From the IMG/VR virus record IMGVR_UViG_3300021964_007043: a DNA stretch of 64,000 nt. One strand, written 5' to 3'. This DNA is from a virus. This document shows, piece after piece, positions 6,424 through 61,201 of the stretch; position 1 is the stretch's first letter; every line of letters starts with the position of its first letter. A program made the translations under genes and the position numbers. The notes beneath the pieces were generated by a model. The model had not been told where the DNA came from and did not search any database. It worked only from the letters and a program-made list of their open reading frames with translations.

Positions 6424-6430
6424 GTACAGT

Positions 6431-30097: not shown

Positions 30098-31097
30098 ATG
30101 TTGCAGTCGACCATTCCATGTTATTCTTAGCAAAATCTGTCAAATATGTTAAGCGTTCTTTAGTAACATATTTGTATAATGAATCCATAATGATATTTGA
30201 CTCGTCACCGAAGTACATAGGATAGTCACCTAGTTTGCTAACAAGATAAGCACGACTTTCGTCATTGGCCATCATGCGTTCAAAAGCATTAATCACTTCT
30301 GCTGTATTAGCACCTGGATGCATAAACAAACCTTTTTGTAAACCATCTCTCCATACTGCTGCAAGAATATATGCTTCAAATACAGGACCCTTTGGCTCTT
30401 TACCAAACTCTTTAGTATATAGATCTACAGCCGTTGGAGTATCAGGCCAGTTGTAGTCTTGTACAAATCCATTGTCTGGTGTAAACATACCGTGATTGAA
30501 TAAACGAACTGCTTCGCCTTCTTCTACCATTGGAGCAGTATTTTTAATATGTCTGCTTGCTGGCTCACGGATATATTTAAAGTCTCCACGCAACCAAGCC
30601 TGTTGTGCTTCACCAGCACTCATTTTGCGAATAAAGTTAATGTTGTCCCAACCCTTTAGCATAGTCCATGCAAGTGTTTCTGGAACACAGCCAGAACAAT
30701 CTGCTAGATTTAAAGTTTCGTTTTTCCAATCCCAATCTGATGCAACTGTTGTTGTGATATTGTATGGTTGTACAAGTACCGGCTCCCAATCTTTGAAACT
30801 CCAGTTTACATCTTCAATCAACCATGCATTGGCATTACCACCATGTGCAAGTAGAATAGTTTTTGGATCGTCTTTGTACTTTGTGTTAAAAGTTTCAAGT
30901 CCTACATTTCCTTTACCGCCTTTGATGTTTTCAACAATAACTCGTTCACCGAGATATTTTTCAAGTTCAGCGGCTACAACATCTCCCCATATAGCGGTAC
31001 CTGTGCCTTTAGGACTTGGTACTACGAGTCTGTAATCAGCCATTGCAGTCCCCACGGTTAAGAAAAGTGTCATAATTGCAGTTAGAATATATTTCAT
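30072..31097 (-). CDS. tctC: Tripartite tricarboxylate transporter substrate-binding protein (TctC/Bug-like)
   Basis: Signal peptide, then LVVP..KGTGT...LEKYLGERVIVENIKGGKG..G. Adjacent to a tctA-like gene. Confidence 0.7.
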   Translation of the reverse strand: MKYILTAIMTLFLTVGTAMADYRLVVPSPKGTGTAIWGDVVAAELEKYLGERVIVENIKGGKGNVGLETFNTKYKDDPKTILLAHGGNANAWLIEDVNWSFKDWEPVLVQPYNITTTVASDWDWKNETLNLADCSGCVPETLAWTMLKGWDNINFIRKMSAGEAQQAWLRGDFKYIREPASRHIKNTAPMVEEGEAVRLFNHGMFTPDNGFVQDYNWPDTPTAVDLYTKEFGKEPKGPVFEAYILAAVWRDGLQKGLFMHPGANTAEVINAFERMMANDESRAYLVSKLGDYPMYFGDESNIIMDSLYKYVTKERLTYLTDFAKNNMEWSTATYVEGKTID

Positions 31098-31114
31098 GTG
31101 TTTTTTTCTCCTTT

Positions 31115-41189: not shown

Positions 41190-42169
41190 TTAGGATACCT
41201 CGCTTGTAATGGTTCTGCAAAAGATGCTGCTTGATCTGCAATACGTTGCATATCCCACTTAGCACAGAACTTCATAAGACGCATACCAACTTGTGTAATG
41301 TCTTTAGGTTCTACTTCTGCAATGGTATTATTAATTATCTCTTTTATGTCAGCTGGCTGTGCAGTTAAGTCACAAAGTGTAACATTGCGATTGTAGTCAT
41401 CTAGCACACGATGTTCAACACCTTCATGATCTACCCAACGTTGTAGCATCATGTTATTCCAGTTATAGCCTTTTGTAGTCTTGTCTGCAAATGCTTCAAT
41501 AAGTCCGACTTTGTTCTTTGTGCCTTTCTTGCGTACACCAGGATAAGCACTAAACACATTATCACTAGTATCGCCACGCATACACTTTTCAAACAGCATA
41601 AAGTCAGGCTCAGGCGCAGGCTTTGCTTCTTTAGTTTTCTTATCTACTACAGGCGCACCTTTATCGTCAAAGTAACCTTCGTGTGTAATAGTAACGTTTT
41701 GTATACCGTTGTATTGACGTACATTAGGTGCAATCAGTTGTGCAAAATCACCGTCAGTGCTAATAATAACATGATTGTCATTAGGGTGTGATTGTACCCA
41801 GCCTGCAATCAAATCATCTGCTTCTAGTTGCGAATGACGCATAACAGTACAGTTAGTCTTTGTACTTACAAAGTCTTTAAACTCGTCAAAGATTTCCCAA
41901 AACACAGTATCTTCTTCTTGCTGTGCAGGAGTCATCGCATCACGAGTTTCTTGCCTATTACGCTTGTAAGGTTCGTAATAATCCTTGCGCCAGCTACGAC
42001 CTTCTAGGCAGAACACAACATGATCTGCATCGAAGTCACGCCATGCTTTCTTAACGCCACTAAGTGTAATATGTAGGGCCATGCCTACTTTTGTATCTAA
42101 GTCACCACGTACAACGTGCCGAGCTCTAAAGAAAGTGTTTGCTGTATCAACTAGTATATAAGTTGCCAT
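41186..42169 (-). CDS. 5'-3' exonuclease / T4 RNase H-like flap endonuclease
   Basis: ILVDTAN, YK.NR, EADDLIA, STDGDF.QL, GDTSDNV motifs. Confidence 0.9.
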   Translation of the reverse strand: MATYILVDTANTFFRARHVVRGDLDTKVGMALHITLSGVKKAWRDFDADHVVFCLEGRSWRKDYYEPYKRNRQETRDAMTPAQQEEDTVFWEIFDEFKDFVSTKTNCTVMRHSQLEADDLIAGWVQSHPNDNHVIISTDGDFAQLIAPNVRQYNGIQNVTITHEGYFDDKGAPVVDKKTKEAKPAPEPDFMLFEKCMRGDTSDNVFSAYPGVRKKGTKNKVGLIEAFADKTTKGYNWNNMMLQRWVDHEGVEHRVLDDYNRNVTLCDLTAQPADIKEIINNTIAEVEPKDITQVGMRLMKFCAKWDMQRIADQAASFAEPLQARYPK

Positions 42170-42563
42170 TTAGTTCTTCTTCCACATATCGTTTCAGTTC
42201 ATGATCACCGATGTTGTCGGGAATCTCATTCTTATAGAAAAGTCTATAGCTATCACTACCGTACTTCCCAATGCCATATAACATTGTAGCATCATTTCCG
42301 TCCCATGTCAAGTAATCTTTTGACATTTGGCGAAGACGCTTCTCTCGGACATTTAACATGCCCAAAGGTTGTATAATCATTTTGATTGTGTCTGGAGCAG
42401 TATTTATTAAGTGTACAGGTGTAGGACAAATGCCTAACAGCATAGGAAGAACACGCTTTACTTGTTTACGGTTTGTTTGATTCAAACAAATAACACCTAC
42501 CATGTGTTGCCACACAGTAGACACTTGCTGTTGTACCATTAAATCATCACGCATCATGATCAA
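42147..42563 (-). CDS. MBD4-like HhH-GPD DNA glycosylase
   Basis: W..MV..I.LNQT.RKQV, LG....R..RL, GIGKYGSDSYRLF...DH.L. Confidence 0.8.
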   Translation of the reverse strand: MIMMRDDLMVQQQVSTVWQHMVGVICLNQTNRKQVKRVLPMLLGICPTPVHLINTAPDTIKMIIQPLGMLNVREKRLRQMSKDYLTWDGNDATMLYGIGKYGSDSYRLFYKNEIPDNIGDHELKRYVEEELNGNLYTS

Positions 42564-43178: not shown

Positions 43179-43378
43179 TATTTTTCATCCTTTAAGTATT
43201 CCACGCTTTGTGTCATACGTGTTATTGAAAAGTACTTAGGATCGTTATAGGTATGTGTACCTTCTGCTCTTAGATCAATATACATACCTTCCTTTTGCAA
43301 TGTAGCCCAAAGAGTGTTTAAGTCTTTCAACTGCTTTTTAAACTCATTAACAAGTTTTGTTACTTTTGGATCTTTCAT
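43178..43378 (-). CDS. Hypothetical protein
   Basis: 66-aa coupled ORF. Confidence 0.65.
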   Translation of the reverse strand: MKDPKVTKLVNEFKKQLKDLNTLWATLQKEGMYIDLRAEGTHTYNDPKYFSITRMTQSVEYLKDEK

Positions 43379-43536
43379 AGTCCTGCCTCCCTAGCACGTT
43401 TTTCTAAATCTACATCATATTCTTTTTCTTTACGATTTACTGCATCGTAAGAAGGATAACCTTTTTCGAATACCGGTGCTTCAAATGCTTGTTCGTGTTT
43501 CTTTGCTTTTTCCAATGTCTTAGGTCCCCCATGCAT
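43375..43536 (-). CDS. Small hypothetical protein (53 aa, MHGGPKTLEK...)
   Basis: 3' part of track ORF 43375..43938. ATG 43536 overlaps the end of queE. Confidence 0.5.
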   Translation of the reverse strand: MHGGPKTLEKAKKHEQAFEAPVFEKGYPSYDAVNRKEKEYDVDLEKRAREAGL

Positions 43537-44413
43537 TTCCGAATAGGCTGATGTGTAGTCGGGGGCTGAACCTCCAACCTCGCTCCATACATGCTTCGGC
43601 GACTTCTTTAACATTGAGGTTGTATTCTTCGCTACGTCCTCCAAGCGGCATAAGATATACCGGACACTCGACCCCGGCGCTACGATACTCTTCGACAGCT
43701 CTTGTAACTTCTTCGAAATCGTCAGCAGTAGCGACAACAAACTTGAGATACATGTCACTGCCGTCAACAAGGCTATACTCGCGAGCGACAGCAGGCAGTA
43801 TAGCAGTATCCCAAGGTTCTCCGCTAACACTAAGTTTTGGGGAACAAGACCACGTGACCGCAAATCTGTCTTGGTCTGTGAGATAGTTGAAGAAATCGTC
43901 GTGTAAATGTTGTGTAGTGTTTGTTTCAAATGTGACATTTTTTAAATCCTGCATACGTGGATGTTCGAACAAATCAATGTAGAGCTTTTGCCACGCTAAC
44001 AAAGGCTCTCCACCGGTCATAATCAAATGAATGTCTTGACCATTGTCCTGTGTCCACTTACCTTCTGGAGTAAGTGACAGCAAATGTTCAACTACTTCAT
44101 CAACTTCTGCTAGTTTGTTGAAGTCTTTAAACTCTGGATAGATACTTGCATATGTGTCACAGCCTGTGTGAATGATAGGCAAGTCATTAAACTCTTTTGT
44201 AGTCTTATGAACACCAGCATCGATAAGAGCTTTAACTTCATCGTTATACTTCTTACCTTCTTTGTGCAGTGTCCATCGATCTTTTGTTTCGCCTGTGCCA
44301 AAGTTCATGCAACGAAAGTTACAACCAAATGTTCTTAAGAACACACTAGGGACTCCAACAAACTTGCCTTCGCCCTGTACACTATAAAATGCTTCTGAAT
44401 ATCTTAACTTCAT
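43520..44413 (-). CDS. queE: 7-carboxy-7-deazaguanine synthase (radical SAM)
   Basis: EAFYSVQGEG.FVG.PSVFLRTFGCNFRC...CDT, TGGEPL, ETN, SPK, PRLH. Confidence 0.9.
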   Translation of the reverse strand: MKLRYSEAFYSVQGEGKFVGVPSVFLRTFGCNFRCMNFGTGETKDRWTLHKEGKKYNDEVKALIDAGVHKTTKEFNDLPIIHTGCDTYASIYPEFKDFNKLAEVDEVVEHLLSLTPEGKWTQDNGQDIHLIMTGGEPLLAWQKLYIDLFEHPRMQDLKNVTFETNTTQHLHDDFFNYLTDQDRFAVTWSCSPKLSVSGEPWDTAILPAVAREYSLVDGSDMYLKFVVATADDFEEVTRAVEEYRSAGVECPVYLMPLGGRSEEYNLNVKEVAEACMERGWRFSPRLHISLFGNAWGT

Positions 44414-45099
44414 CGTGGTGCAAACTCCTGTTGTAGTTTAATGTTGTCAAAGAACTCTTTCTTTGCACCTGGATCGTGTTTAAAACTACCTTCAAGTACA
44501 GTTGTCTGTGTAAGTGAACTATGTGCCATAATGCCACGATTTTCACAGCAACCGTGTGTTGCTTGAATGTATACACCTAAGTTTTGAGCACCAGTTGCAG
44601 CCTTAATCTCACGTGCAATATCGTTTGCAAGTTCTTCTTGCAGTGTACCACGTCTAGCACACCATTGTGCAATACGTGTGTACTTGCTAAGTCCGATAAG
44701 TTTGTCTGCGGCAATAATACCAATGTACGCTACACCAGTAACTGGCTGGTGATGATGTGAACATATACTTTTTAGTTCTGAACGTACAACTAGCATACCT
44801 TCATAACGGTCATCGCTATCATTTGGAAATGCTGTTGCGTCGGGTTTAGGATCATAGCGTCCTGCCATAATCTCATTAAAGTACATTTTTGCAAGACGTC
44901 TTGCTGTACCTTGCGAGTTAGGATCGTTATAGCGATCAATAACTAGTGCATCTAGTACTTGATTAAATGCTAGTGTGGCATCTTCAATAAGTGCTTCTTT
45001 GTCACCTGCTTGTAGGACTTCTGAGATGTTGTCACCTGCCCAATAGCGGATGCCAGCATCTTCTAGTTTTGCTTTTATTTGTTCTGCTTTGCTCATCAA
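44410..45099 (-). CDS. folE: GTP cyclohydrolase I
   Basis: SICSHHHQP, IGLSK..R, R...QEEL, A.HGC...RG, F..D...K.EF. Confidence 0.95.
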   Translation of the reverse strand: MMSKAEQIKAKLEDAGIRYWAGDNISEVLQAGDKEALIEDATLAFNQVLDALVIDRYNDPNSQGTARRLAKMYFNEIMAGRYDPKPDATAFPNDSDDRYEGMLVVRSELKSICSHHHQPVTGVAYIGIIAADKLIGLSKYTRIAQWCARRGTLQEELANDIAREIKAATGAQNLGVYIQATHGCCENRGIMAHSSLTQTTVLEGSFKHDPGAKKEFFDNIKLQQEFAPR

Positions 45100-46185: not shown

Positions 46186-46319
46186 TCTTTTGACTCCTTT
46201 AATCTTTTTTGTAGTTGTTTTTCTTCGTATTCTGCAAGTTTTTGACGATACTCGTCTTCACTTAGTTTATGCCAACCTATGCATTTTCCGGTTGGCGATC
46301 TTCCGCATCCACATGCCAT
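46182..46319 (-). CDS. CDGSH-like iron-sulfur mini-protein (45 aa; absent from the ORF track)
   Basis: Manual translation gives MACGCGRSPTGKCIGWHKLSEDEYRQKLAEYEEKQLQKRLKESKE, with C-x-C-x2-S-x4-C-x-G-x-H. Its TGA overlaps the next ATG. Confidence 0.7.
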   Translation of the reverse strand: MACGCGRSPTGKCIGWHKLSEDEYRQKLAEYEEKQLQKRLKESKE

Positions 46320-46663
46320 AGTCTATAGTTTCCTTTCTCTGGTATAACGTGACGCACCCCGCCACGAGGATCATCCATATCACCTTTACGGCGTGGAATC
46401 AAATGTACATGAGGCCACATAACAGTTTGTCCTGCTTCTTCGCCTACATTTTGTCCGATGTTGTAACTATCACAATAACCCTTTTGAACCCAGTCATAGC
46501 CCCAAGCATAAGCTGCTTTATAGCATTTAGCCAAGTGATCCCAATCTTCCACCTTAGGCACAAAAAGAACATGGCCTTCGGTAACTGGAAAACCATCTTT
46601 AAAAACTGTATATTCTCTTGTATCAACTAAAACGTCCTTCCAAGGTATTTCATTAAATGTCAT
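46277..46663 (-). CDS. HIT-family nucleotide hydrolase
   Basis: D.FPVT.GH.LFVP, NIG.N.G..AGQTV..PHVHLIPRR.GD. Confidence 0.95.
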   Translation of the reverse strand: MTFNEIPWKDVLVDTREYTVFKDGFPVTEGHVLFVPKVEDWDHLAKCYKAAYAWGYDWVQKGYCDSYNIGQNVGEEAGQTVMWPHVHLIPRRKGDMDDPRGGVRHVIPEKGNYRLWHVDAEDRQPENA

Positions 46664-46839
46664 TTTCTTTTGCCTTGCATTTCTTTTTTAGCTCTTGCAA
46701 GTGTTTTTTGCTTTCTTGTGATTTCTTCTCGAAAGTTAATACATGCTTGCATCTTTACTCCGTCTTTATACATTTGCTCAAGTTCAGCTTTTTTACGAGC
46801 TATAGTTTTTTCTAAAGCTTCAATATATTCTTTGTTCAT
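46660..46839 (-). CDS. Small hypothetical coiled-coil protein
   Basis: Start MNKEY at 46839, ATGA-coupled to the PRTase gene. Confidence 0.6.
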   Translation of the reverse strand: MNKEYIEALEKTIARKKAELEQMYKDGVKMQACINFREEITRKQKTLARAKKEMQGKRK

Positions 46840-47396
46840 TGTCCTACATTCTCCCATGGGTAAACTAACCATACATCTTCTTCTGCTTTGTTTACTTCGT
46901 GTGTAGTGTAGTCTACTTTACCGTTAAACTCGCTTGACAAGTTATCTGTAATAGTAGCAAACCGAACGTTACGATGCCAAACACTTTCCCAAGCCTTATC
47001 TTCATTTGGCAAGCATGTACTGCGCCAATCTTCTTTGATCCAGTTAAATGTAGCACCAGTGTCGTTAATGTCATCTACAACGAGAATGTTTTTACGTTTA
47101 CTAATATCCCAACGAGTTTTAAACAAGTCTCGTTGTTCTTCGTCAACATAACCAAATGCATCTTCGCTCATCCAACAGTTAGATTCACTTTCACCGCCTT
47201 GATTGTCCCTTAAACTTACTTTAAGGGCATCGCCACGTACACCTAACATATTGCTAAGGATAGTAGCTGGTACATTGCCGCCACGTGTAATACCTACAAT
47301 GTAGTCAGGACGCCAGTTATCTTTATACATTTGCAATGCAATGTTTAGGCAAGCACGTTCAATGTCTTGCCACGAATAATAATGTTTCTTAATCAT
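46836..47396 (-). CDS. Type I phosphoribosyltransferase (purine/XGPRT-like)
   Basis: IVGITRGG.VPA, PRPP-binding ILVVDDINDTGAT, WLVYPWE. Confidence 0.9.
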   Translation of the reverse strand: MIKKHYYSWQDIERACLNIALQMYKDNWRPDYIVGITRGGNVPATILSNMLGVRGDALKVSLRDNQGGESESNCWMSEDAFGYVDEEQRDLFKTRWDISKRKNILVVDDINDTGATFNWIKEDWRSTCLPNEDKAWESVWHRNVRFATITDNLSSEFNGKVDYTTHEVNKAEEDVWLVYPWENVGQ

Positions 47397-47830
47397 TGTT
47401 CATATTTCTCTTTTAGATATTGTTCATTTTGAACCCACTCGCCTTTGCGAATGAATCCCCATTCTCTTATTTTAGGACCTGGTATAAAGAGTGTCCAAGC
47501 ATCAACACCAGGCTCAAGCTCAATCCGATGCAAACTACTTGGAGTACTAATTCTGATGTGTCCCGGTGCTCTCCAAAAGCGTCCTCGGGGAGTATGCTCC
47601 CAATACCCGCCACGCAAAATGATAGTAAGATAAGGCCAAGGGTGATCGTGTAAATCATCTAAATCTCCTTTGTGAAAATTGTGTAGAAACACGTTAAACG
47701 GAAACCATTTACGGTTTTTTAAGAAAAGATAATAGCGAGTTAAGTACGGCTCGTTTTCATAACGGTCCATAATTACTCGCTTGCGTCCTAGCTTGTCTAA
47801 CCAGGATAAAAATTTAGAACGGAATGTCAT
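47393..47830 (-). CDS. Cupin-fold hypothetical protein
   Basis: LHNFH..D..LHDHPW...GGY.E...LHRIEL. Confidence 0.55.
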   Translation of the reverse strand: MTFRSKFLSWLDKLGRKRVIMDRYENEPYLTRYYLFLKNRKWFPFNVFLHNFHKGDLDDLHDHPWPYLTIILRGGYWEHTPRGRFWRAPGHIRISTPSSLHRIELEPGVDAWTLFIPGPKIREWGFIRKGEWVQNEQYLKEKYEQ

Positions 47831-48194
47831 CGTCTAAGCCTCTTTCTTTTAGTTTGCCTTTGTAGTCTTGTTCAGTCATTTTGTATATTGTTTTGAAGTT
47901 TTCGTATGCCTTTGCAAGTGCAGGATATTCTTCGCACATATTATTAACACGATCTAAACTAGGCATAGTATCTACAAATGGAACACTACCAAATGTAATG
48001 TTACTGATATCAAAAGTATCATCACTTACATAATCGTTTATGTCAATAGTAACTGTATCTGCAGGATCACTGATAGTAAATGTATCTGCTGTTGTTATCA
48101 TAGTGTCGAATGTAATATTAGGGGATTCATTAGAATGCCAAATAGTATCACCAACACTAATAGTAAAGGTATCATCTTTCTTTGATTGCGTCAT
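47814..48194 (-). CDS. Hypothetical phage protein
   Basis: 126 aa, Thr/Asp-rich N-terminus. Confidence 0.7.
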   Translation of the reverse strand: MTQSKKDDTFTISVGDTIWHSNESPNITFDTMITTADTFTISDPADTVTIDINDYVSDDTFDISNITFGSVPFVDTMPSLDRVNNMCEEYPALAKAYENFKTIYKMTEQDYKGKLKERGLDDDIPF

Positions 48195-49230
48195 ACAATG
48201 CTGCTCCTGAAAAAAATTCTTTGTTTAGTTTAGTACGTTGCTTCTCAAGGCTTACTAAGAAATCGTCATAGTTTTCCATGTACTCACGTATTTGTGCAAC
48301 TACTTTATTTCTATGCTGTCTGTAACTTGTAAAGTCTTCAGTCCACACACTTGGATACTTAAACTCGGGTAGTGCCATCTCTGAATAACTTAATCTATCA
48401 GGAACCATAGGAATAGCATTTACAAGAGCACCTTCATACCAACTAATGCCCAGTGTCTCTTGTAGGTTAGCACTAAACACAAGTTTTGCTTCACCTAACA
48501 AGTTATGGTATTCATTTTTAGTAAGTTCACGTTCTTGACAGATAACAAACTCGTACTCAGGAAGTTGCTCTGCTAGATCACGGAAAATATCAACTTGTTT
48601 TTCAGGAGCAACACGATGCGGAAAGAGAATAAGATCTCGTTTTTCCATACCTTTATAGCTATCTAAACTGTTCTTTAGATACTCCATGGGCCAACCTACA
48701 CGATGTATTCTATTCCAGTCAACTGCATAATCTTCGTCAAATACATCTGTAAACATATCAATATGGAAATCACTTGCAAAGAAGTTGTCATCGTAACATT
48801 CAAACATTGACATCTCAGCATGTCTGACCCAAGGTTTGCTACCTATTAGTCTGCCCAAGAAATCTTGTGGGTCATAACTACCAGCATGCCAGAGGCCACC
48901 AATGCTAACATTAACACCAAGTAACTCTGCCATGTAGCGTAGTTGTATAACTGTAGGATTCCAGGCATCGGTATACAAAAAATAATCGCCGTTCTTAACT
49001 TCACCATTGCAGAACATTTCTCCAATCTGTTCTAGTTGTTTTGACTTATAAACATTTGTACCACCGAAGTTAAGAAAAGCCCCAGGCGTAGTAGCCTGAG
49101 GCGTTTCTCCTCCACTAATAACTACAACTTCTTTATTCGTAGCCCGTTGCAGTTGCTTTGGAAGATAGTCCTTCCATTGTTTAGTGTAACGTGTATCAAC
49201 TGCTTCGATGTCTACGATATAGATAGTCAT
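48172..49230 (-). CDS. GT-B (GT4-like) glycosyltransferase, resembling the DUF3524/GTDC1 (QTMAN) type
   Basis: FPHR.APEKQ, EY..LL..A.LVFSA..QET.GI...EG, P.VPDRLSYSEM. Confidence 0.8.
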   Translation of the reverse strand: MTIYIVDIEAVDTRYTKQWKDYLPKQLQRATNKEVVVISGGETPQATTPGAFLNFGGTNVYKSKQLEQIGEMFCNGEVKNGDYFLYTDAWNPTVIQLRYMAELLGVNVSIGGLWHAGSYDPQDFLGRLIGSKPWVRHAEMSMFECYDDNFFASDFHIDMFTDVFDEDYAVDWNRIHRVGWPMEYLKNSLDSYKGMEKRDLILFPHRVAPEKQVDIFRDLAEQLPEYEFVICQERELTKNEYHNLLGEAKLVFSANLQETLGISWYEGALVNAIPMVPDRLSYSEMALPEFKYPSVWTEDFTSYRQHRNKVVAQIREYMENYDDFLVSLEKQRTKLNKEFFSGAALYDAIKER

Positions 49231-49443
49231 TTAGTTTCTCCGATTGTTAAATTTCCTTCCGGCAGTTCGAGCTTTTGCTCGTAGCCAACCTTGGTACTTT
49301 TGATAGGCTTGCCATCTTGGCGAATCCTTTTTAAAAAGGTCTGCTTCATCAAAGACCTTACCTTCAAAGCGACAGTAGTCGCGGTACTTATCCAAGTCGT
49401 TAAAGACTTTATTATATGCTTCTCGATTAAACTCGATTGCCAT
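49231..49443 (-). CDS. Hypothetical phage protein
   Basis: Start MAIEF at 49443 after a GAGG RBS. Confidence 0.7.
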   Translation of the reverse strand: MAIEFNREAYNKVFNDLDKYRDYCRFEGKVFDEADLFKKDSPRWQAYQKYQGWLRAKARTAGRKFNNRRN

Positions 49444-49459
49444 TTTAGGTTCCTCTGCA

Positions 49460-49930
49460 TTAAAGTTGCGGTTTAGGATAAAAGATTGAACAGCCATTTT
49501 CGCCATCTTCGGCTACATCAATTTCAACAAAGCGGCCGGGATACTTTGCAGAAATAGCTTCATAGAGATCATCTGCGATCATCTCACATGATTTATGATT
49601 AAGTTCTAGTACACCTTCTACATCATAAAGACGCTCCATCCAACGTTTAAACTGAATAAACTCAATGTCACGATCATTATGAAATACCTGAATACGTACT
49701 TTGAAGTGAAAGATATGACGATGTGGAATGCCAAGGAATGATACATCATCCCAATCGCCTGTTGCTAGTTTAGGATCTTTGTCAGCACCTGGATACATAT
49801 GCACACCTTCTTTGCGGAAGGTTACCCAAATACTACGATCTGCTTTACTCATTACATTGTCTTGAGCCATTTTAAAATCTTCTTCTTTCATTCTACGTTT
49901 CATATAAGTTTCGTAACGTTCTTGTTCCAT
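49460..49930 (-). CDS. queD: 6-carboxy-tetrahydropterin synthase-like (QueD/PTPS T-fold) protein
   Basis: EG.H.YP, HRHIFHFKV, DIEF, SCEMIA, V.EDGENG. Near folE, queE and dpdA. Confidence 0.7.
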   Translation of the reverse strand: MEQERYETYMKRRMKEEDFKMAQDNVMSKADRSIWVTFRKEGVHMYPGADKDPKLATGDWDDVSFLGIPHRHIFHFKVRIQVFHNDRDIEFIQFKRWMERLYDVEGVLELNHKSCEMIADDLYEAISAKYPGRFVEIDVAEDGENGCSIFYPKPQL

Positions 49931-49939
49931 TGTTTTTAT

Positions 49940-49968
49940 AGTATACTTTCATTCAATAACTTTGTCAA
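49940..49968 (-). promoter_or_regulatory. Sigma70-type promoter for queD and the glycosyltransferase
   Basis: TTGACA (49968-63), N17, TATACT (49945-40). ATG lies 9 nt downstream. Confidence 0.7.
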
Positions 49969-50482
49969 GCCCATATTTGCCCCAATCTGTAAACTTTTCT
50001 CTGTCCATTAGATCGTGTAAACTATGACACCAAACACCAGGATTAGTTGCCTTAAAGTCTTTATCATCAATCTTCAACATTGTGTTGTAGTTCCACAGTT
50101 TTGCATAAGGCAATGGAATGCGTAGTTGTGGGATAAAGTTGTCGTATTCGATCAATGGTGATTCTAAAAATGCTTCTGCAAGTGAAATGGGAATATCTAA
50201 ACTACACAGTTTGCCTGCTGTTAAAAATGCTTTGATCATATTGTCCCAAGGATCCCATTGATCATTATCTTCTGGAAAGTTTACACCTGGATTAAAACTA
50301 TGATTAGCACCAAAGAAGATATGTTCGCATTGTTCTTCATCGTAATGTTTTTGAATAACATCACAAGGTTGTACACCTGTAACAAATAATGTTTTTAATC
50401 CAAATGCAGGAGTCTTTTCTACTTCTACGCCTATGAAGAAAACTGCATCATCTGCTACACCAGTTTCATAATCACGCTTCAT
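49949..50482 (-). CDS. Hypothetical protein in the deazaguanine gene neighbourhood
   Basis: 177-aa intact ORF; function not recognised. Confidence 0.75.
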   Translation of the reverse strand: MKRDYETGVADDAVFFIGVEVEKTPAFGLKTLFVTGVQPCDVIQKHYDEEQCEHIFFGANHSFNPGVNFPEDNDQWDPWDNMIKAFLTAGKLCSLDIPISLAEAFLESPLIEYDNFIPQLRIPLPYAKLWNYNTMLKIDDKDFKATNPGVWCHSLHDLMDREKFTDWGKYGLDKVIE

Positions 50483-51074
50483 ACTGTGCCTCTACAAAAA
50501 ACATTTTTGTTCGATTAAGGTTTGCAATGTTTTCCATTTCATTCATATACTTGTCAGTAATACGGAACTGATAGGAACCATTTTCTTGTAGTTCTAAATA
50601 AGCCCACATACCTTCTCCTCTAATATAAGAAAAGTCATGTCCGGAGTTCTGCACAAGAACATTTCGACAATGGCTCCATGCTTCTTTAAGTTTCGTTTGG
50701 ATTGTATCGTCAGTAAAGTCATGTACTTTCGCACTTACAACAATGTTATCGCCTGTAAGTTCGTTTACTTTATGTTTAACTCTGTACTGACGTTGTACTT
50801 TGTCAAACATATTATTACCAGCTTGCCAATCTTCTTGAACAATGTCTTGTGGTAACATTGCACCTACTGTATGTCCGCTTCCGCTATCAACTTTACGAGT
50901 TTTGACTTCAATACCTAACTTTTGCAAATCAATACCTTTGCCTCTGTTAACAGAGTATCCGTTATCTTCAAGCTGATCTTCAACCCATCGGCCGATATTA
51001 CCACCGCATTCTTTTAGAGGAATCACAGTTCCGACTTCGATTGCTTTGTTTAGTTTAACTACATTTAATGTCAT
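50472..51074 (-). CDS. Putative PD-(D/E)xK restriction-like endonuclease (MutH/Sau3AI/NaeI-like core)
   Basis: IGRWVE..L...G...N.G.GIDL...GIEVKT. Confidence 0.5.
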   Translation of the reverse strand: MTLNVVKLNKAIEVGTVIPLKECGGNIGRWVEDQLEDNGYSVNRGKGIDLQKLGIEVKTRKVDSGSGHTVGAMLPQDIVQEDWQAGNNMFDKVQRQYRVKHKVNELTGDNIVVSAKVHDFTDDTIQTKLKEAWSHCRNVLVQNSGHDFSYIRGEGMWAYLELQENGSYQFRITDKYMNEMENIANLNRTKMFFVEAQYEA

Positions 51075-51274
51075 CCTAGTGCCTTTAGTTCTGTTTCTAA
51101 TCTGTGTATTTCATCTTTGAGCCATAGCTTTTGAGTTTTCTTACGGTTAATAGCACCGTCATCTGCAAACTTAGTATACATGTCTTTTACTTCTTCGTCA
51201 AGTGCTCTGTGCTTGCGATAAAGTTCTTGCAGGTGTGTAGCAAGTTTATTGTGTTTCTCCGTGAAGTTGCTCAT
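51071..51274 (-). CDS. DUF465 (YdcH-like) small protein
   Basis: L..L..KH..LD.EV...K..KL.LKDEI..L. Confidence 0.75.
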   Translation of the reverse strand: MSNFTEKHNKLATHLQELYRKHRALDEEVKDMYTKFADDGAINRKKTQKLWLKDEIHRLETELKALG

Positions 51275-52796
51275 CTTCTAGTTCCTCAAGTTTTTGTATT
51301 TGTGCTTCAGTAAACTCTTCCGAATCTACTTCTACTTCTTCTACATCAAATAGTTCAGCAAACTTAGGTCTAGCACTAACAATCTTTTTGCCAGTATAAC
51401 CGCGTGTGCCTCTGATACTCATAAAGAACTTTTCGTGTTCTTTAATAACTGCAAGTGAATCTTCTAGCGTAGTCTTTGAGAATATTTCTTCCACAACATC
51501 TCTAAATAGAACCCTGTCAAATCGCTCTTGTACAAGCATTTTCGGAATAACTCCATTGTCGTATTGTCTGTTCGCTTCTTGAACTGCATTAATGTGACTC
51601 CACACGTTATGACCCATTTGGATCGCATATGAAAAACTATCCCATGATGTTTTTCCTTCTTTACCTATTTTATTTAGATCTCCGGGAGCATATGTACAAA
51701 CGTCTGATACTTTGAGTTCGGCAGTGATGGGACTGTCTTCAAAGTTTTTAAATACCCCATCTGATACAGTAGCATCTCTAAACAGACGGGTGTCTGTAGC
51801 ATATTTTTTATCGTCAACTGACGGCACCATTCGATATGTCCATTTCGACCTGTCCGTAGTTTCATTCTGTATGTATACCTGTCCGTTTGCGGTTGCAAGG
51901 AAAGGACTAGCACAGTCAAAAGTGATAGTGAAGTTTTCATTATAATACTTCCTTACTGCTCGTTGAATGTCTGTTAACAACAATGCCCATTCGAGTTTTG
52001 AAGTACCCAAGAAGTGCATTACATCGTGTACACCTTTTTGTAGCAAGCCGTCGTAGTGTAGTGTTACAATACGTCTTAGTGCAAGCTCTAGGTCACACAT
52101 GTTTTGTCCACCCATTGACCAGCCATTAAAATGATTATCGGGATACTTAACTGGATCACAAAAGTCTTTCATCTGCTCGTACCAGTCATCTGCTTCCACA
52201 TGGTTTTCGCCTTGTAGTACGTTTAAGAACTTACAAGCACCAGTACGATGTTTCATAAAGTATTCATTGTTAATACGTGTTGCTTCTACTGCTTCTTGGT
52301 ATGTTGAAATGCCTGTTGCTTTTGCGCCTTCTGGGCTACGTGCAACCCATGCTGGAATATCAAGGATCATACCATAGTCCATATAAGCATCCATCCAACG
52401 TAACACACCATCACGTTTCTTTTGTGCTTTTGGACAGTTAAGATCCTTCCAATCACCTTCCCAAACGCCTTTACCAATCTGGAAGCCGCCTGAGTCGCCT
52501 AGTAGCCAAGTGTTCTCTCTATCTCTGTTACGCACCATATCTTCTTTTGGAACAAACTTAGTTGTGTCTAAGTCAGCGTGTCCTGCAGAGTATAGAGTCC
52601 ATTTGTAAGTAAATGCACCTTCTTGTGCATTAAGATAGTTTAAACTCTCAACACCATTAGCAAAGTTGCTTGGAATACGATTTTTGTCTACGTATTCATC
52701 ATGACGCTGTTTACCAACGTAAGTGGCATAGAAGCCACTTAACGCTGGAAGAAAAACAGCATAGTCATTTTGTGTTGCAGTTAAATCTCTGTTCAT
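51246..52796 (-). CDS. dpdA: TGT-family DNA 7-deazaguanine transglycosylase (DpdA-like)
   Basis: GDSGGFQ, ILDIP, NVLQG, W.MGG, HFLG, TFDCAS and HN catalytic motifs. folE, queD and queE are in the same region. Confidence 0.8.
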   Translation of the reverse strand: MNRDLTATQNDYAVFLPALSGFYATYVGKQRHDEYVDKNRIPSNFANGVESLNYLNAQEGAFTYKWTLYSAGHADLDTTKFVPKEDMVRNRDRENTWLLGDSGGFQIGKGVWEGDWKDLNCPKAQKKRDGVLRWMDAYMDYGMILDIPAWVARSPEGAKATGISTYQEAVEATRINNEYFMKHRTGACKFLNVLQGENHVEADDWYEQMKDFCDPVKYPDNHFNGWSMGGQNMCDLELALRRIVTLHYDGLLQKGVHDVMHFLGTSKLEWALLLTDIQRAVRKYYNENFTITFDCASPFLATANGQVYIQNETTDRSKWTYRMVPSVDDKKYATDTRLFRDATVSDGVFKNFEDSPITAELKVSDVCTYAPGDLNKIGKEGKTSWDSFSYAIQMGHNVWSHINAVQEANRQYDNGVIPKMLVQERFDRVLFRDVVEEIFSKTTLEDSLAVIKEHEKFFMSIRGTRGYTGKKIVSARPKFAELFDVEEVEVDSEEFTEAQIQKLEELEDEQLHGETQ

Positions 52797-53536
52797 TACT
52801 TGCTCTGTGCTGGTAGAATGTAGTCGTACTTTACTAGTCCTGAATCAACAGTGATCTGCATAGCACCTTGATCTGAAATACTCATTGTAACATCACCGTC
52901 CAAGTTAAGAATTGCTTGAACTTGCGCTACCGGCCAACTCCAAGTATGTGTAAGTGTACCTTCTACATTTGTTTCAAATACAAACTTACCTGCGTGTGTG
53001 CTTGCATCACCAAAGCTAAACACTAGATCGTTAACACCGCCAGTTTCAGCAGTAGTAACATTAAATGTAGGCTCTTCTGAATGTGCTGCCGCTTGCAACT
53101 TCAAACGTCCAATAGCACCAATGCTAGGTTGCAGTTTTACATTCCATGCTGCACCTTTAAACTTAACTGTTTTAAGTTTTTCTTCGATAATCGCTTTGTT
53201 CATAAAACGATAGTCGTTTTGGAAATCACCAGCATCATTTTCAAAGTGAATGTGTGTTGGAACAGTTTCGCCATTACGCTCTGCTTCAACTACATTAATC
53301 TTTGCATCTTTTTGATACTCCGGATTCTTTAAGTGTAACGCTAACTTGTCTAAGTTAGGCATACCAAATGTGCCTTTAAACTCAGCAACAGGTGCATGTG
53401 CAGTTGCGCTCAAAATAACTGAACGATCTTCTGCCATAGCATCAATCTGTGTGCCTTCGTCGTTGCTTACTTTTACTAAGCTAAGGAAGCCAAGTGCGTG
53501 TGTGTGAGCAACTACGTCTTGTAAGATATCTTTCAT
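52796..53536 (-). CDS. Putative DNA polymerase sliding clamp
   Basis: 246 aa with a two-domain beta-rich pattern ending in YDYILPA; in a replication module. Confidence 0.5.
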   Translation of the reverse strand: MKDILQDVVAHTHALGFLSLVKVSNDEGTQIDAMAEDRSVILSATAHAPVAEFKGTFGMPNLDKLALHLKNPEYQKDAKINVVEAERNGETVPTHIHFENDAGDFQNDYRFMNKAIIEEKLKTVKFKGAAWNVKLQPSIGAIGRLKLQAAAHSEEPTFNVTTAETGGVNDLVFSFGDASTHAGKFVFETNVEGTLTHTWSWPVAQVQAILNLDGDVTMSISDQGAMQITVDSGLVKYDYILPAQSK

Positions 53537-54297
53537 ACTGTTTCTCCATTGAATAAGTTTATTATATTATCTTTGCCTTTGTTTGTCAAGAAGTTTTCTA
53601 CTGAGTATTTAGGTTTAAAGCCTAGTGCTTTCATTTTTTCTATGTTAGCACAAGTCCAACTTCTCTCTCCTGGGGTATTTAGACGGACAGGTAAGTCCGG
53701 CGCCAAGTCTTGGATCTTTACAGGATTGCCTGTTCCGATATCAACTACACCCTTGACATGTGTAGCGTTGATTAGTATTTCTATTGCATCTAGTATGTCG
53801 TTTAGATGTATAAAATCTCTATAGTGCCTAGTTACATATTCTAGTTTACCATTTAATAGTTTGTTAAAGAACATATTTTCTCTGGGACATTTTTCTGAAT
53901 ACACTGTATGGAAACGCATACCCAGTGTATTTGGATAACGTTCTGCAAGTTCTTCCAAACAAAACTTACTAGCCGCATAAGGATTTAGATCGGGTTCGTA
54001 TGCGCTCGAACTACTCGCATATAGTATGCGTGTATCTGCATAACGTTCAAATAGTTTACGACTTGCTTCTACATTATTAAACCAATAAGAACTAGGATCA
54101 CTTAGGCTTTCACGTACACCGCTTTTACCTGCAAGATGAATAACAAGATCTACTTCACGCCATCGATCAAATGTAAGTAAATCTTGTCCGTCTTTTAAGT
54201 CTATACCGTGTACCGCTTGTACATCGTTACGTAAACTCAATCTATCGTATAAAGCACTTCCTACGAAGCCTTTATTTCCCGTAATCAGTATATGCAC
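53533..54297 (-). CDS. NAD-dependent epimerase/dehydratase (extended SDR)
   Basis: ILITGNKGFVG, IHLAG, ASSSS, YAASK, RF.TVY, RDFIH. Confidence 0.9.
   Translation of the reverse strand: MHILITGNKGFVGSALYDRLSLRNDVQAVHGIDLKDGQDLLTFDRWREVDLVIHLAGKSGVRESLSDPSSYWFNNVEASRKLFERYADTRILYASSSSAYEPDLNPYAASKFCLEELAERYPNTLGMRFHTVYSEKCPRENMFFNKLLNGKLEYVTRHYRDFIHLNDILDAIEILINATHVKGVVDIGTGNPVKIQDLAPDLPVRLNTPGERSWTCANIEKMKALGFKPKYSVENFLTNKGKDNIINLFNGETV
53561..53589 (-). promoter_or_regulatory. Internal sigma70 promoter for the clamp-dpdA operon
   Basis: TTGACA (53589-84), N17, TATAAT (53566-61), GGAG RBS. Confidence 0.75.
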
Positions 54298-54979
54298 GTA
54301 GTCTCTCCCAGGTATCCATCCAATCTTTCACATGATAGGCCATGCCGTATTTGATAATACTTCCTAAAGGATAGTCGTTTCCAGCTGGATCCATTCTATC
54401 ACCAAAAAAGTTTATCCATTCATATTTTGTAAAGTCATTGATTATTTGACTTTTATTTGCACCTTCGGGTGCAATATCTATTCCTGTTTCGCCACCAGGC
54501 CTTGCTTCTAGTTCTTTAAATAGTTTATTAAAGTTATGTGAAATAACTTCTCGTTCGTTATGCTCTGTATCCCATTCAACATATAGCTTACGTTCGCCTA
54601 GTGTAGCGTTACGTCCTACTATACTAAAGTTTACTAATCCGGGCCTATGTTCAAAGTGTAACCCAGTACGCAACGGAAATGCACTTGCAGTTAGTTGTTC
54701 ACTTAACCATTCGTGTGCATCTTCTGGCAGTGTCCATTCATTTGTGCGAACATTTACACCTTTTTCCCAAACATCATTGCCTGAACAGTTATAGATGCGC
54801 TTTACTTTGTTGCATATTTCGGGACCTAACTGCTCAAGAGTTTTTGCGTAGTCGCTACCAGTTACAAGATATACAGCATGTTCGTCACAAAAGTGTTTAA
54901 AGTACTCTCTAAACTGAGGAACTATTTCTTGTCTACTTGGCGTTAGTGTGCCGTCTACATCAAATATAAAGTTATCCAT
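54272..54979 (-). CDS. HAD-IIB phosphomannomutase-like (eukaryote-type PMM) protein
   Basis: FDVDGTLT, VTGSD, E.R.G..NFS..GR, GG..GIDI.P.G..K, FFGD.....GNDY. Start ATG 54979. Confidence 0.8.
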   Translation of the reverse strand: MDNFIFDVDGTLTPSRQEIVPQFREYFKHFCDEHAVYLVTGSDYAKTLEQLGPEICNKVKRIYNCSGNDVWEKGVNVRTNEWTLPEDAHEWLSEQLTASAFPLRTGLHFEHRPGLVNFSIVGRNATLGERKLYVEWDTEHNEREVISHNFNKLFKELEARPGGETGIDIAPEGANKSQIINDFTKYEWINFFGDRMDPAGNDYPLGSIIKYGMAYHVKDWMDTWERLRAYTDYGK

Positions 54980-55136
54980 TTGATTCCTTGCAATACGCAA
55001 TTTCATTTTGCGTAAACTTTTCGGTTAGGTTATACCATTCGACATAACACTCATGCTTAGTGTCAAACTCTGCATAGCGTGTTACTTTAGGTTCTTCTAA
55101 TCCAACAACTGTGCTAATAACAAATAATGCCCACAT
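54972..55136 (-). CDS. Small hypothetical protein
   Basis: MWALFVI... start at 55136, TAATG-coupled. Confidence 0.6.
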   Translation of the reverse strand: MWALFVISTVVGLEEPKVTRYAEFDTKHECYVEWYNLTEKFTQNEIAYCKESNG

Positions 55137-55452: not shown

Positions 55453-55579
55453 TTTCTTTCTCCTTAATAATAAAGTGTACTTTAGCTACATTGCCTTTTT
55501 CTTTCTTGATGTAAAACTCTAAACCAGCATCAATAAAGATTCTTCTAAGTTCGTTAATAGTAGGATCTTGGTTAAGCAC
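55445..55579 (-). CDS. Small hypothetical protein (44 aa; absent from the ORF track)
   Basis: GTG start; NQDPTINELRRIFIDAGLEFYIKKE...; fills the operon gap. Confidence 0.5.
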   Translation of the reverse strand: MLNQDPTINELRRIFIDAGLEFYIKKEKGNVAKVHFIIKEKENG

Positions 55580-55991
55580 TATTTTGTCTTTCTGCTACAC
55601 GCTTCCTCAACCCACTTGAGCTAAAGCGATGGTCTCGTTTATTGAAGTATAGATCAATATCACGTCTACGGCAAATATCTTTGCCTGTGAAGTCTTTATC
55701 TCTATACTCCTCTCCCAGTATTCTAACATCAATATGATACATTGTTAAAATATCTTCTAGATCCTGTTCTGTACCATATGGAACTATCTCGTCTACATAA
55801 CCTACTGCTTTTAGTTGTGTATAACGTTCAACAATAGTTTGTATAGGAGCGTTTTTTTCTGCTCTATCTTGACTAGGGTCTACTTGTAGTCCGCAGATCA
55901 AATATTCACACTGCTCTTTTGCTTCACGTAACATTTGTACGTGCCCTGCATGCAATAAATCAAATGTTGAACAGGTAAAACCTACTTTCAT
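55572..55991 (-). CDS. Cytidylyltransferase (TagD/glycerol-3-phosphate CTase-like)
   Basis: FDLLHAGH (HxGH), L.CGL, ER...L.A..YVDE, G.EY, SSS..R. Confidence 0.9.
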   Translation of the reverse strand: MKVGFTCSTFDLLHAGHVQMLREAKEQCEYLICGLQVDPSQDRAEKNAPIQTIVERYTQLKAVGYVDEIVPYGTEQDLEDILTMYHIDVRILGEEYRDKDFTGKDICRRRDIDLYFNKRDHRFSSSGLRKRVAERQNSA

Positions 55992-60566: not shown

Positions 60567-61201
60567 GTAGAAAATACTTTTTTGTTGTCAAAAGCACGAT
60601 GCCAGCCAAAGAACTGTGCTTTATAGTCCGAATGATCGTCTGAAGAAAGGTTGATCCATTCGTCTTTGCGTTGCCATAAACGCATTGCTCCATCATACCA
60701 ATCTGTTGAATCAATAATGTATTCAAGTTTTGCCTTTGCTTGCTCTGCTTCGTTAATATCATCAAAGTCTTGTTCTATATGTATCACTTCCATAACAATA
60801 TCGTGTGTTACATAATCAAGACTAAAGTCTATACCCCACTTGGGTTTGATATTTAACAGTTTTTGTAAGATTGGTCTGTTTTTTGAAACTTCTATGATTT
60901 GTTCTCTTGCTTCACCTGCGAACGCATAACGTGTTAATAGCATACAATGATCTAGCACAAGCCCGTGTTCACTTTGTTCTACGTCTGTATACCATTCTTG
61001 TACAGGTGCAATATGGTATTGTATTTCTCTATTAAGATTAATATTGTTTGCTTCGTAGTGTAACCACTCTAAAGGAGTCGGAACTTCATATCCGTCCTTA
61101 TCAAAGTCTTTAAATGGAAGATTTTCTACTTGATGTCGTGCTATTGGTTTGCGTAAGTAAGGGTCTGGATTGAACTTAGGATATAAGTCCTGAAGTCTCA
61201 T
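60563..61201 (-). CDS. Hypothetical phage protein
   Basis: 212-aa intact ORF, ATGA-coupled. Confidence 0.75.
   Translation of the reverse strand: MRLQDLYPKFNPDPYLRKPIARHQVENLPFKDFDKDGYEVPTPLEWLHYEANNINLNREIQYHIAPVQEWYTDVEQSEHGLVLDHCMLLTRYAFAGEAREQIIEVSKNRPILQKLLNIKPKWGIDFSLDYVTHDIVMEVIHIEQDFDDINEAEQAKAKLEYIIDSTDWYDGAMRLWQRKDEWINLSSDDHSDYKAQFFGWHRAFDNKKVFST

Follow-up and report, generated by a model that had tools for sequence, protein, structure and literature searches.

What is a glycosyltransferase doing amidst genes for 7-deazaguanine in DNA? The question arises from the virus record IMGVR_UViG_3300021964_007043, a giant phage from an estuary that has not been cultured; a stretch of 64,000 nucleotides of it, here called the window, was analysed. 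At 48172–49230, on the minus strand, it encodes P0001, a QTMAN-related GT-B glycosyltransferase (GT) of the GT4 type with 352 residues. A sequence-only reading of the same DNA had likened P0001 to QTMAN (GTDC1), the animal enzyme that moves mannose from GDP-mannose onto queuosine-34 of tRNA-Asp to form mannosyl-queuosine (PMC11755703), and had proposed that the phage adds a sugar to a deazaguanine of its DNA.

The answer that we favour, with a probability of roughly 55%, is that P0001 would be an active transferase of the retaining GT4 type, accessory to the DpdA/DpdL pathway, and would glycosylate deazaguanine in phage DNA. The deazaguanine as acceptor, its glycosylation at the DNA stage, i.e., after insertion of the base, and the identity of the sugar are what we infer. 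To our knowledge, the bases of DNA on which sugars have been described are without exception pyrimidines, namely glucosyl- and arabinosyl-5-hydroxymethylcytosine, base J and the sugar-bearing hypermodified thymidines. The known 7-deazaguanines of DNA, again as far as we know, all carry small groups. A deazapurine with a sugar, if true, would add a new chemical class to the modifications of DNA, and it would bear on the evasion of restriction and CRISPR, on type IV and END-type defences, on the sequencing of phage DNA and on enzyme tools. It would also tie a phage DNA enzyme to an animal tRNA enzyme, QTMAN, in evolution. The idea is directly testable, as the gene is present in five cultured phage lineages. 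In the literature, we found no description of glycosylated 7-deazaguanine in DNA and, on DpdL and DpdA3, nothing beyond Cui et al. 2023.

A glycosyltransferase of the GT4 type

The AlphaFold2 (AF2) model of P0001, based on a 60-sequence alignment, has the two Rossmann domains of a GT-B enzyme (mean predicted local distance difference test, pLDDT, 96.4; predicted template-modelling score, pTM, 0.93), and its sole loop of lower confidence comprises residues 41–50. The sequence-only reading was right in calling the protein GT-B, and right, too, about its coordinates and motifs: the open reading frame (ORF) of 352 codons contains FPHRVAPEK at residues 203–211 and PDRLSYSEM at 277–285, and residues 240–267, which read EYHNLLGEAKLVFSANLQETLGISWYEG, contain the EX7E motif (E258..E266) within the stretch QETLGISWYEG. 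The H205-R206 pair is present. In 60 diverse relatives the residues for the donor diphosphate, R206, K211 and the two glutamates of EX7E (E258, E266), are invariant or nearly so; the same holds for H115 and P277-R-L-S-Y-x-E284.

Structural comparison places P0001 among the GT4 enzymes. Foldseek, run against the PDB, gives a probability of 1.00 to GT4 enzymes, and VIA matches the entire protein (residues 1–352) to GT4 structures with Z scores of 20–27, among them sucrose-phosphate synthase (26.7), BshA (25.9) and PglA (23.4). No specific acceptor class was singled out by Foldseek/PDB, by the wide VIA-align search or by BFVD, which all yielded generic GT4 matches; beyond these, the searches recovered the homologues of ACP17 and of BCSR5-like phages. 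Pfam, PHROGs and NCBIfam contain no significant family for P0001, and 35 of the 60 relatives match the Pfam family Glycos_transf_1 at E ≤ 0.01, the best at 1.3e-8. By fold and motifs, we class P0001 as a sequence-divergent member of GT4.

The gene is common. Metagenomes contain more than 8000 proteins with an identity to P0001 of 85% and above, on contigs of up to 343 kb, and a search of 1.8 billion representatives returned 1197 clusters (50% identity) at E ≤ 1e-3; Atlas clusters of the family are 95–100% viral, and we take its main carriers to be phages and islands that resemble prophages. Measured on 37 relatives, the ratio of non-synonymous to synonymous substitution rates (dN/dS) has a median of 0.09, and synonymous sites are close to saturation. 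The ORF is a real gene under purifying selection and not a chance ORF. The exact DNA was found in estuary and marine metagenomes of several studies. In two seawater metatranscriptome runs, contigs of relatives, mostly 85–95% alike, cover DpdL and parts of the GT; their shares are small, and carry-over of DNA is possible. Megablast of the region against phage records gave no match, and neither did a scan seeded with P0256, a distant member of the GT family.

Within the coding region, some 130 nucleotides past the start (49079–49102, minus strand), there is a terminator-like hairpin with a 9-bp stem, 7 of its pairs being G-C, followed by TTTTCTT. It falls within the part that codes for the loop of residues 41–50 and is probably incidental.

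The 7-deazaguanine genes of the locus

What the sequence-only reading took for queD, two genes upstream of the GT, is a DpdL-type paralogue of QueD. The 156-residue protein (49460–49930, minus strand; phrog_17812) reads LGIPHRHIF, has no Pfam PTPS match and lacks CxxxHGH, the canonical QueD motif, which is found nowhere in the 64-kb window. What defines DpdL among the paralogues of QueD is indeed LxxxHRHxF at the site where QueD has CxxxHGH, and it has been proposed to decarboxylate 7-carboxy-7-deazaguanine (CDG) to 7-deazaguanine (PMC10516641). Homologues occur in the phages phiST and ACP17, the latter having been named as a DpdL phage (Cui, Hutinet et al., NAR 2023, PMC10516641); in Phosso, PA5oct and ACP17, the gene next to the GT encodes a protein 53–64% identical to this one.

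Upstream lies the gene of a putative DNA 7-deazaguanine transglycosylase of the TGT family, DpdA3-like and 516 residues long (51246–52796, minus strand; LGDSGGFQ). It has no Pfam match at E ≤ 0.01. Its D101-S-G-G-x-Q106, H261-x-L-G and D294 are invariant in 32 homologues, and it is 33% identical to gp316 of PA5oct, which abuts the GT of that phage. On the other side of the GT follow, also on the minus strand, FolE, the GTP cyclohydrolase I (44410–45099; PF01227, E 1.9e-37; NCBIfam FolE, E 2.5e-38), and a QueE-like radical SAM protein, the presumptive 7-carboxy-7-deazaguanine synthase (43520–44413), which scores E 1e-12 to 1e-8 with the NCBIfam QueE models, below their cut-offs, and is 30% identical to the QueE of PA5oct. 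The 3' 419 nucleotides of this gene are overlapped, in another frame, by an ORF of 187 codons (43375–43938, minus strand); probably one of the two is spurious or the QueE-like gene is shorter than called. No true QueC was found in the window, in which FolE and QueE are present. By its predicted products, the locus would be a 7-deazaguanine DNA modification set of the QueC-less phiST/ACP17 type, made up of DpdA3-like protein, DpdL, FolE and QueE.

Linkage in phages and bacteria

Is the company of the GT a whim of one genome? A tblastn search of 50,697 phage records revealed GT homologues in 22. In Phosso, DpdL abuts the GT, and FolE and QueE follow a few genes downstream. PA5oct has the order DpdA3-like, GT, DpdL, then QueE, and the T4-like ACP17, whose GT is 38% identical to P0001, the order QueD, FolE, X177 (a small cluster protein, see below), DpdA, GT, DpdL, QueE. 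In X1, FolE is followed by GT, DpdA, DpdL and QueE; in BCSR5, DpdL is followed by GT, DpdA, QueE and FolE. The linked GT is thus found in five cultured lineages, Phosso, the PA5oct group, ACP17, X1/BUDD and BCSR5, and since the gene order differs between them, the linkage is not mere inherited synteny. DpdL itself is found in 28 phage records, and several DpdL lineages, phiST included, are without GT, which makes the GT an accessory of the pathway and not a requirement.

The exception among the phages is the remotest branch (24.5% identity across 64% of the query), made up of the Xanthomonas phages PhiXhv-12, -15 and -16 and of the Ep026/Ep032 phages. Its loci alone are without deazaguanine genes; there the GT adjoins GlmS and an LmbE/BshB-type deacetylase (PhiXhv-12, 5669–8903), which suggests amino-sugar modification of another acceptor.

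The same link is seen in cellular genomes. One genome per species, 185,579 species in total, was scanned with a 15-sequence GT alignment as seed, which gave 67 loci; their ORFs were called and searched with iterated hidden Markov models (HMMs) for DpdA, DpdL, FolE, QueE and QueD. The motif scan yielded only true members of the GT family and proteins with the QTMAN_N domain. In the true family loci, from bacteria and metagenome-assembled genomes (MAGs), DpdA or DpdL lies no farther than 8 kb away in 38 of 40 cases, and the stop codon of one gene often overlaps the start codon of the next. The unlinked pair of loci sits on contigs of 3.9 and 4.6 kb, and FolE adjoins the GT on one of them. As controls served the loci with only a weak C-terminal match, i.e., the QTMAN_N genes: 0 of 24 had any of DpdA, DpdL, FolE, QueE or QueD nearby. 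Placed on a tree, 46 of the 48 family rows of known context are linked. A tie of the GT to dpdA or dpdL in its relatives, the former named as a check by the sequence-only reading, is therefore evident from 38 of 40 loci against none of the 24 controls, and from the five cultured lineages.

A large part of the linked loci belongs to chromosomes of alphaproteobacterial isolates (Shimia, Sulfitobacter, Ochrobactrum, Pelagibacterium, Devosia, Methylobacterium, Magnetospirillum). The core there consists of DpdA and GT, overlapping or adjacent (e.g., 5658–12318 in the locus L109), and a protein of about 180 residues whose resemblance to Vut_1 (YhhQ, the queuosine-precursor importers), with E 3.4e-5, stays below the cut-off of Pfam; DpdL is often missing. 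DpdA therefore appears to be the main partner of the GT. In general kind, these loci look like the bacterial Dpd system (DpdA/B/C modification plus DpdD-K restriction), a chromosomal island whose DpdA inserts a 7-deazaguanine into DNA of the cell itself; they differ in that DpdA is accompanied by GT and the Vut_1/YhhQ-like protein instead of DpdB and DpdC. They may be Dpd-like islands for self-marking or defence, or remnants of prophages.

Two observations may be added. Frequent neighbours of the alphaproteobacterial loci are genes for a MASE1 histidine kinase, a response regulator of the LuxR type, a nuclease resembling CoiA or a protein of 585 residues. Further, MAG contigs binned as Neomarinimicrobiota, Legionellales, Methanobacteriota and Pacearchaeota carry the module, with GT identities of 60–76%; at least PBPT01000016.1 (335 kb) has the look of a jumbo phage genome that was sorted into the bin of a bacterium.

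Kinship with the queuosine mannosyltransferase

How close, then, is P0001 to QTMAN? Both are single-chain GT-B/GT4 proteins of about 350–370 residues, and QTMAN, too, acts on a 7-deazaguanine nucleoside in a nucleic acid, its acceptor being the cyclopentenediol of queuosine. Its relatives turned up by themselves in the genome scan: all ten weak hits tested (10/10) proved to be QTMAN_N plus Glycos_transf_1 proteins (E 1e-48 to 3e-58), and the NCBI/UniRef names of such hits are DUF3524 or tRNA-queuosine alpha-mannosyltransferase domain proteins. The HMM of the phage family scores 50–84 bits on 23 full-length QTMAN_N proteins, while the best of all solved chains reaches 26.6; this direction is affected by the selection of the proteins by motif. 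The reverse direction is free of that bias. An HMM of the 23 QTMAN_N proteins gives 34–85 bits (median 59) on 60 members of the phage family, against 28.3 for the best solved GT4. Among the solved chains, the sequence searches found no structure of QTMAN.

Profile-to-profile alignment by hhalign of the GT family with the QTMAN_N proteins yields a probability of 99.7% (E 2.6e-26) over 275 columns, covering residues 5–320, and the C-terminal, donor halves alone yield 99.8% (E 9.6e-29). Of the profile and structure searches, which the sequence-only reading had called for, hhalign finds the likeness to the QTMAN_N family; Foldseek and VIA return generic GT4 enzymes only. Common to both families is the consensus VPDRLSYxE, which the solved GT4 chains examined lack in their aligned parts and which is, as far as we know, not a general GT4 motif; further motifs shared in the donor half are H-R..(E/D)K and (Q/H)E(T/F)xG. 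The DUF3524/QTMAN_N family contains the closest detectable cellular relatives of the GT. Our reading is that the two are sister families, the phage family having a QTMAN-type donor domain and an acceptor domain that looks to have diverged strongly.

In GT-B enzymes, the C-terminal domain binds the nucleoside-diphosphate (NDP) sugar and the N-terminal domain the acceptor. The homology with QTMAN informs about the donor and about common descent more than about the acceptor, because the likeness sits in the C-terminal half. For the acceptor, it is the gene context that suggests an answer.

A possible pathway

In the scheme that we propose, CDG would be the product of FolE, QueE and a QueD whose gene lies in another part of the genome. 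DpdL would turn CDG into the base to be inserted, 7-deazaguanine according to the published proposal, and the DpdA3-like transglycosylase would swap that base for guanine in phage DNA. The GT would then use an NDP-sugar to glycosylate the deazaguanine residue, and the bulkier base so formed would block restriction as well as other defences that sense DNA. Contributing to the synthesis of the donor may be the three genes for a phosphomannomutase-like protein, a nucleotidyltransferase and a short-chain dehydrogenase/reductase (SDR) that lie 4–7 kb upstream. Since the decarboxylated base has no hydroxyl, the linkage of the sugar may be unusual, e.g., a C- or N-glycoside on the pyrrolopyrimidine.

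The nearest known system is that of phiST. Its DpdL/DpdA3 system and the present locus have in common FolE, QueE, a DpdL with LxxxHRHxF, a divergent DpdA of the TGT family and the lack of QueC nearby. Unlike phiST, the present locus has the GT in the operon, together with sugar-nucleotide genes, a phosphoribosyltransferase (PRTase), a HIT protein and several uncharacterised ORFs. Because GT and sugar-nucleotide genes are present here and the GT is absent in phiST, the final base would be expected to differ from the plain 2'-deoxy-7-deazaguanosine (dDG) of phiST.

Two published observations fit the scheme. The DNA of PA5oct resists several restriction enzymes in a manner that suggests a modified G, the structure of which was left undefined (PMC12191111). 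When dpdL and dpdA of ACP17 were expressed in E. coli, no dDG was obtained, and the authors considered that other enzymes may be required (PMC10516641); the GT of ACP17 lies exactly between its dpdA and dpdL. A sugar on the base, if true, would explain both the modified G and the failed reconstitution.

Tentatively, one may go further. The base could be one that has escaped description, a glycosylated 7-deazaguanine, widespread and possibly with a manno-configured sugar, in view of the QTMAN-like donor half and of the genes resembling PMM, HldE and HldD, and the GT could be a DNA-directed offshoot of the QTMAN lineage; for this wider proposal we would put the odds a little below even. Such a base would be met in the abundant jumbo phages of estuaries and the sea, in phages of the T4 kind, in PA5oct, a Pseudomonas phage relevant to therapy, and in the alphaproteobacterial islands, where GT, DpdA and the YhhQ-like importer may mark the cell's own DNA.

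Objections and alternatives

A fair number of findings weigh against our proposal. The first group concerns chemistry. Neither 7-deazaguanine nor CDG has a hydroxyl of the kind that QTMAN uses; FolE, QueD, QueE and DpdL are unable to make the cyclopentenediol hydroxyl that QTMAN glycosylates; and a clear hydroxylase was not found in the core cluster. Also, phiST makes dDG with DpdL and DpdA3 (PMC10516641) and has no GT homologue, from which it follows that the GT is not needed for insertion. Many of the bacterial GT-DpdA loci are without DpdL, hence the acceptor cannot rest on DpdL chemistry in all members of the family.

The second group concerns kinship. The N-terminal, acceptor halves of the GT family and of the QTMAN_N proteins, aligned alone by hhalign, reach a probability of 5.4% (P 0.007) over 137 columns in register, compared with P values of 0.19–0.37 over 15–21 columns for reversed and cross-domain controls, and the Pfam domain QTMAN_N (PF12038) matches neither P0001 at E ≤ 10 nor any of the 60 relatives at E ≤ 0.01. 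The likeness to QTMAN/GTDC1 that had been claimed thus stands for the donor half, with its E of 9.6e-29 and VPDRLSYxE, and is weak in the acceptor half. As a control of specificity, this likeness was set against HMM scores of solved GT4 sequences. Even for Glycos_transf_1 (PF00534), P0001 scores 11.4 bits (E 0.23) with a cut-off of 26.4. As judged from such comparisons of sequence, the homology to QTMAN says little about the acceptor of the GT. A predicted complex of the DpdA3-like protein with the GT scored 0.00, which is evidence neither way.

Of the alternatives, the one that survives best shifts the sugar to an earlier step. The GT might act before insertion on a free base or intermediate, such as CDG, 7-deazaguanine or a pterin, with DpdA inserting the glycosylated base, or with a soluble or protected glycoside staying out of DNA. 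The failure of ACP17 dpdL plus dpdA to give dDG when the GT was left out (PMC10516641) can be read this way, the bacterial loci that combine GT and DpdA with a Vut_1/YhhQ-like protein of an importer family point to free-base chemistry, and the cluster includes enzymes of small-molecule nucleotide metabolism, the purine PRTase and the HIT protein. A pterin glucosyltransferase (5zer) is among the structural matches, too, with a Z of 20.2 that does not stand out from other GT4 enzymes. The price is a DpdA pocket that accepts a glycosylated base, so far hypothetical. The sugar transferases known for phage DNA, the alpha- and beta-glucosyltransferases of T4 (AGT and BGT), act, as is generally known, after replication. 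They are, like P0001, phage GT-B enzymes of a DNA hypermodification pathway; they lack any specific sequence relationship to it, and their acceptor is the hydroxymethyl group of a pyrimidine, provided by a dCMP hydroxymethylase. AGT bound to DNA (1y6f) matches the P0001 model with a Z of 19.1, within the generic GT4 range. The sole characterised relative of the GT, QTMAN/GTDC1, likewise acts on a base already in the polynucleotide (PMC11755703). On balance, glycosylation before insertion seems unlikely to us.

Returning to the DNA as substrate, one has to ask why it should not be tRNA. P0001 might simply be a QTMAN proper, glycosylating queuosine or another 7-deazaguanosine at position 34 of tRNA from host or phage and so tuning translation, and its adjacency to DpdA might reflect shared metabolism. 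Its closest detectable relatives are, after all, QTMAN_N-family proteins, and some bacterial QTMAN_N genes lie near tRNA-related genes, i.e., aminoacyl-tRNA synthetases and a TsaD-family gene. A quick tree, however, separates the DpdA-linked GT family and the QTMAN_N proteins into two clades with 100% support on each side, and the acceptor half has diverged beyond recognition by Pfam. The company of the two also differs: the bacterial QTMAN_N neighbourhoods are of the housekeeping kind, without a conserved partner gene (the most widespread neighbour family occurs in 7 loci) and, unlike those of the P0001 family, without DpdA or DpdL, which are markers of DNA modification (PMC10516641). The annotated loci contain no queA, queG or tgt, and the window no tRNA gene. 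We regard a role in tRNA as very improbable.

Equally improbable is that the GT serves another DNA base, a protein or an envelope sugar, or is an inactive structural partner hitch-hiking in a replication and modification module: the GlmS/deacetylase-linked branch (24.5% identity) indicates that the family can be re-used and the fold matches are generic GT4, yet the linkage survives rearrangement in T4-like phages, jumbo phages and bacterial chromosomes (38/40 vs 0/24), the catalytic motifs are invariant, and a related 335-kb contig has no ThyA-family hydroxymethylase.

The sugar donor

Three genes on the minus strand suggest what the donor may be. The sequence-only reading had pointed to a phosphomannomutase-like gene at 54272, which is confirmed: the region 54272–55006 encodes a eukaryote-type phosphomannomutase-like HAD-IIB protein (PF03332, E 6.1e-23). 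Next to it, at 53533–54297, is an SDR of 254 residues, an NAD-dependent epimerase/dehydratase (PF01370, E 1.9e-20), with ADP-glyceromanno-heptose 6-epimerase as the best NCBIfam match (E 6e-15, far below cut-off). The third gene, at 55572–55991, codes for a cytidylyl/adenylyl-transferase-like nucleotidyltransferase of 139 residues (PF01467, E 1.5e-13); the NCBIfam models that it matches best, both far below cut-off, are rfaE_dom_II (E 7e-18), which stands for the HldE domain with heptose-1-phosphate adenylyltransferase activity, and glycerol-3-phosphate cytidylyltransferase (E 5e-17). Together they would fit a manno-configured donor, mannose or manno-heptose.

The 335-kb contig just mentioned belongs to a relative with a GT 77% identical to P0001. 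It carries no NTP_transferase of the ManC/GalU type. Its lack of a ThyA-family hydroxymethylase (PF00303) argues against a 5-hydroxymethyl-pyrimidine as acceptor. A PTPS (QueD) match lies 64 kb from its GT; a true QueC was not found on this contig either.

A plausible operon and neighbouring genes

The right half of the window is transcribed on the minus strand. In the direction of transcription, it starts with a family-B DNA polymerase, the PF01467 nucleotidyltransferase, the phosphomannomutase-like protein, the SDR, a clamp-like protein (a match of phrog_12062, the Phosso counterpart of which is annotated as sliding clamp) and the 516-residue TGT-family protein. It continues with small ORFs, a 200-residue ORF, X177, DpdL, a 77-residue ORF, the GT and ORFs of 126 and 145 residues, and ends with the PRTase-like protein, HIT, a 271-residue protein, FolE and the QueE-like protein.

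Just upstream of DpdL, at 49940–49968 on the minus strand, there is a sigma-70-like site, TTGACA-17-TATACT, that agrees with the consensus in 11 of 12 positions. The promoter shared by GT and DpdL, as claimed by the sequence-only reading, would fit this site and the overlaps of the genes; the site, however, is only a consensus match, and promoter-like sites in the window are no commoner than in shuffles (34 vs 35.3). Between DpdL and the PRTase (46836), each gene touches or overlaps the next; the overlaps measure 4 nucleotides at 49460, 49230 and 47396, 17 at 47830 and 23 at 48194. Because of this arrangement, co-transcription of DpdL through the PRTase would be plausible.

The other members of the cluster, all on the minus strand, are less telling. 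Between DpdL and GT, and overlapping both, lies the 77-residue ORF (49227–49460), which has no family match and has counterparts in 119 related loci. X177 (49949–50482) is a conserved cluster protein of 177 residues, outside the known families, whose own family occurs in 144 loci; the ACP17 homologue (10236–10721) sits between FolE and DpdA. Its AF2 model has a pLDDT of 86, and the best fold matches are weak, with Z about 6. As they include three structures of QueE, at Z 5–6, X177 was considered as a stripped-down QueE; hhalign to QueE was no better than controls, which leaves this reading a weak lead. The 200-residue ORF (50472–51074) has no family match and is kept in 6 loci only. Downstream, the 126-residue ORF (47814–48194) overlaps the end of the GT gene and recurs in 142 loci, PA5oct included; the 145-residue ORF with an HDHPW motif (47393–47830) recurs in 100 related loci, none of them in cultured phages. 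There follow the purine PRTase-like protein of 186 residues (46836–47396; PF00156, E 5.5e-13), whose best NCBIfam match is xanthine PRTase (E 3.8e-12, below cut-off) and whose family is also present in PA5oct, and the HIT-family nucleotide hydrolase or transferase (46277–46663; PF01230, E 2e-10).

Just downstream of QueE, a short protein resembling HhH-GPD DNA glycosylases is encoded (42147–42563, minus strand; E 3e-6). In Phosso, an annotated glycosylase (11017–11550) is found directly upstream of the DpdL-GT pair. Next to genes for base modification, such a truncated glycosylase fold might act as a decoy for defences of the glycosylase or END type, or inhibit them.

Some 20 kb away, a metabolic block on the minus strand, as seen from the GT, (26927–32536) comprises a PP-loop ATP-pyrophosphatase with SGGKDS, an Fe/2-oxoglutarate dioxygenase of the TauD/TfdA family (E 1.5e-17), a GNAT acetyltransferase and a transporter of the TctA family (E 2e-92). 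It could be a second modification module or an auxiliary metabolic one, and its dioxygenase is of an enzyme type that could create a hydroxyl acceptor. The PP-loop protein (26927–27913) matches QueC with E 0.003, below cut-off; it was rejected as a QueC, its scores with QueC, NAD synthase and asparagine synthase being equally weak. Finally, a pterin-4a-carbinolamine dehydratase domain (PF01329, E 2e-14) forms the C-terminus of a protein of 518 residues (61198–62754, minus strand); the genome has FolE chemistry as well.

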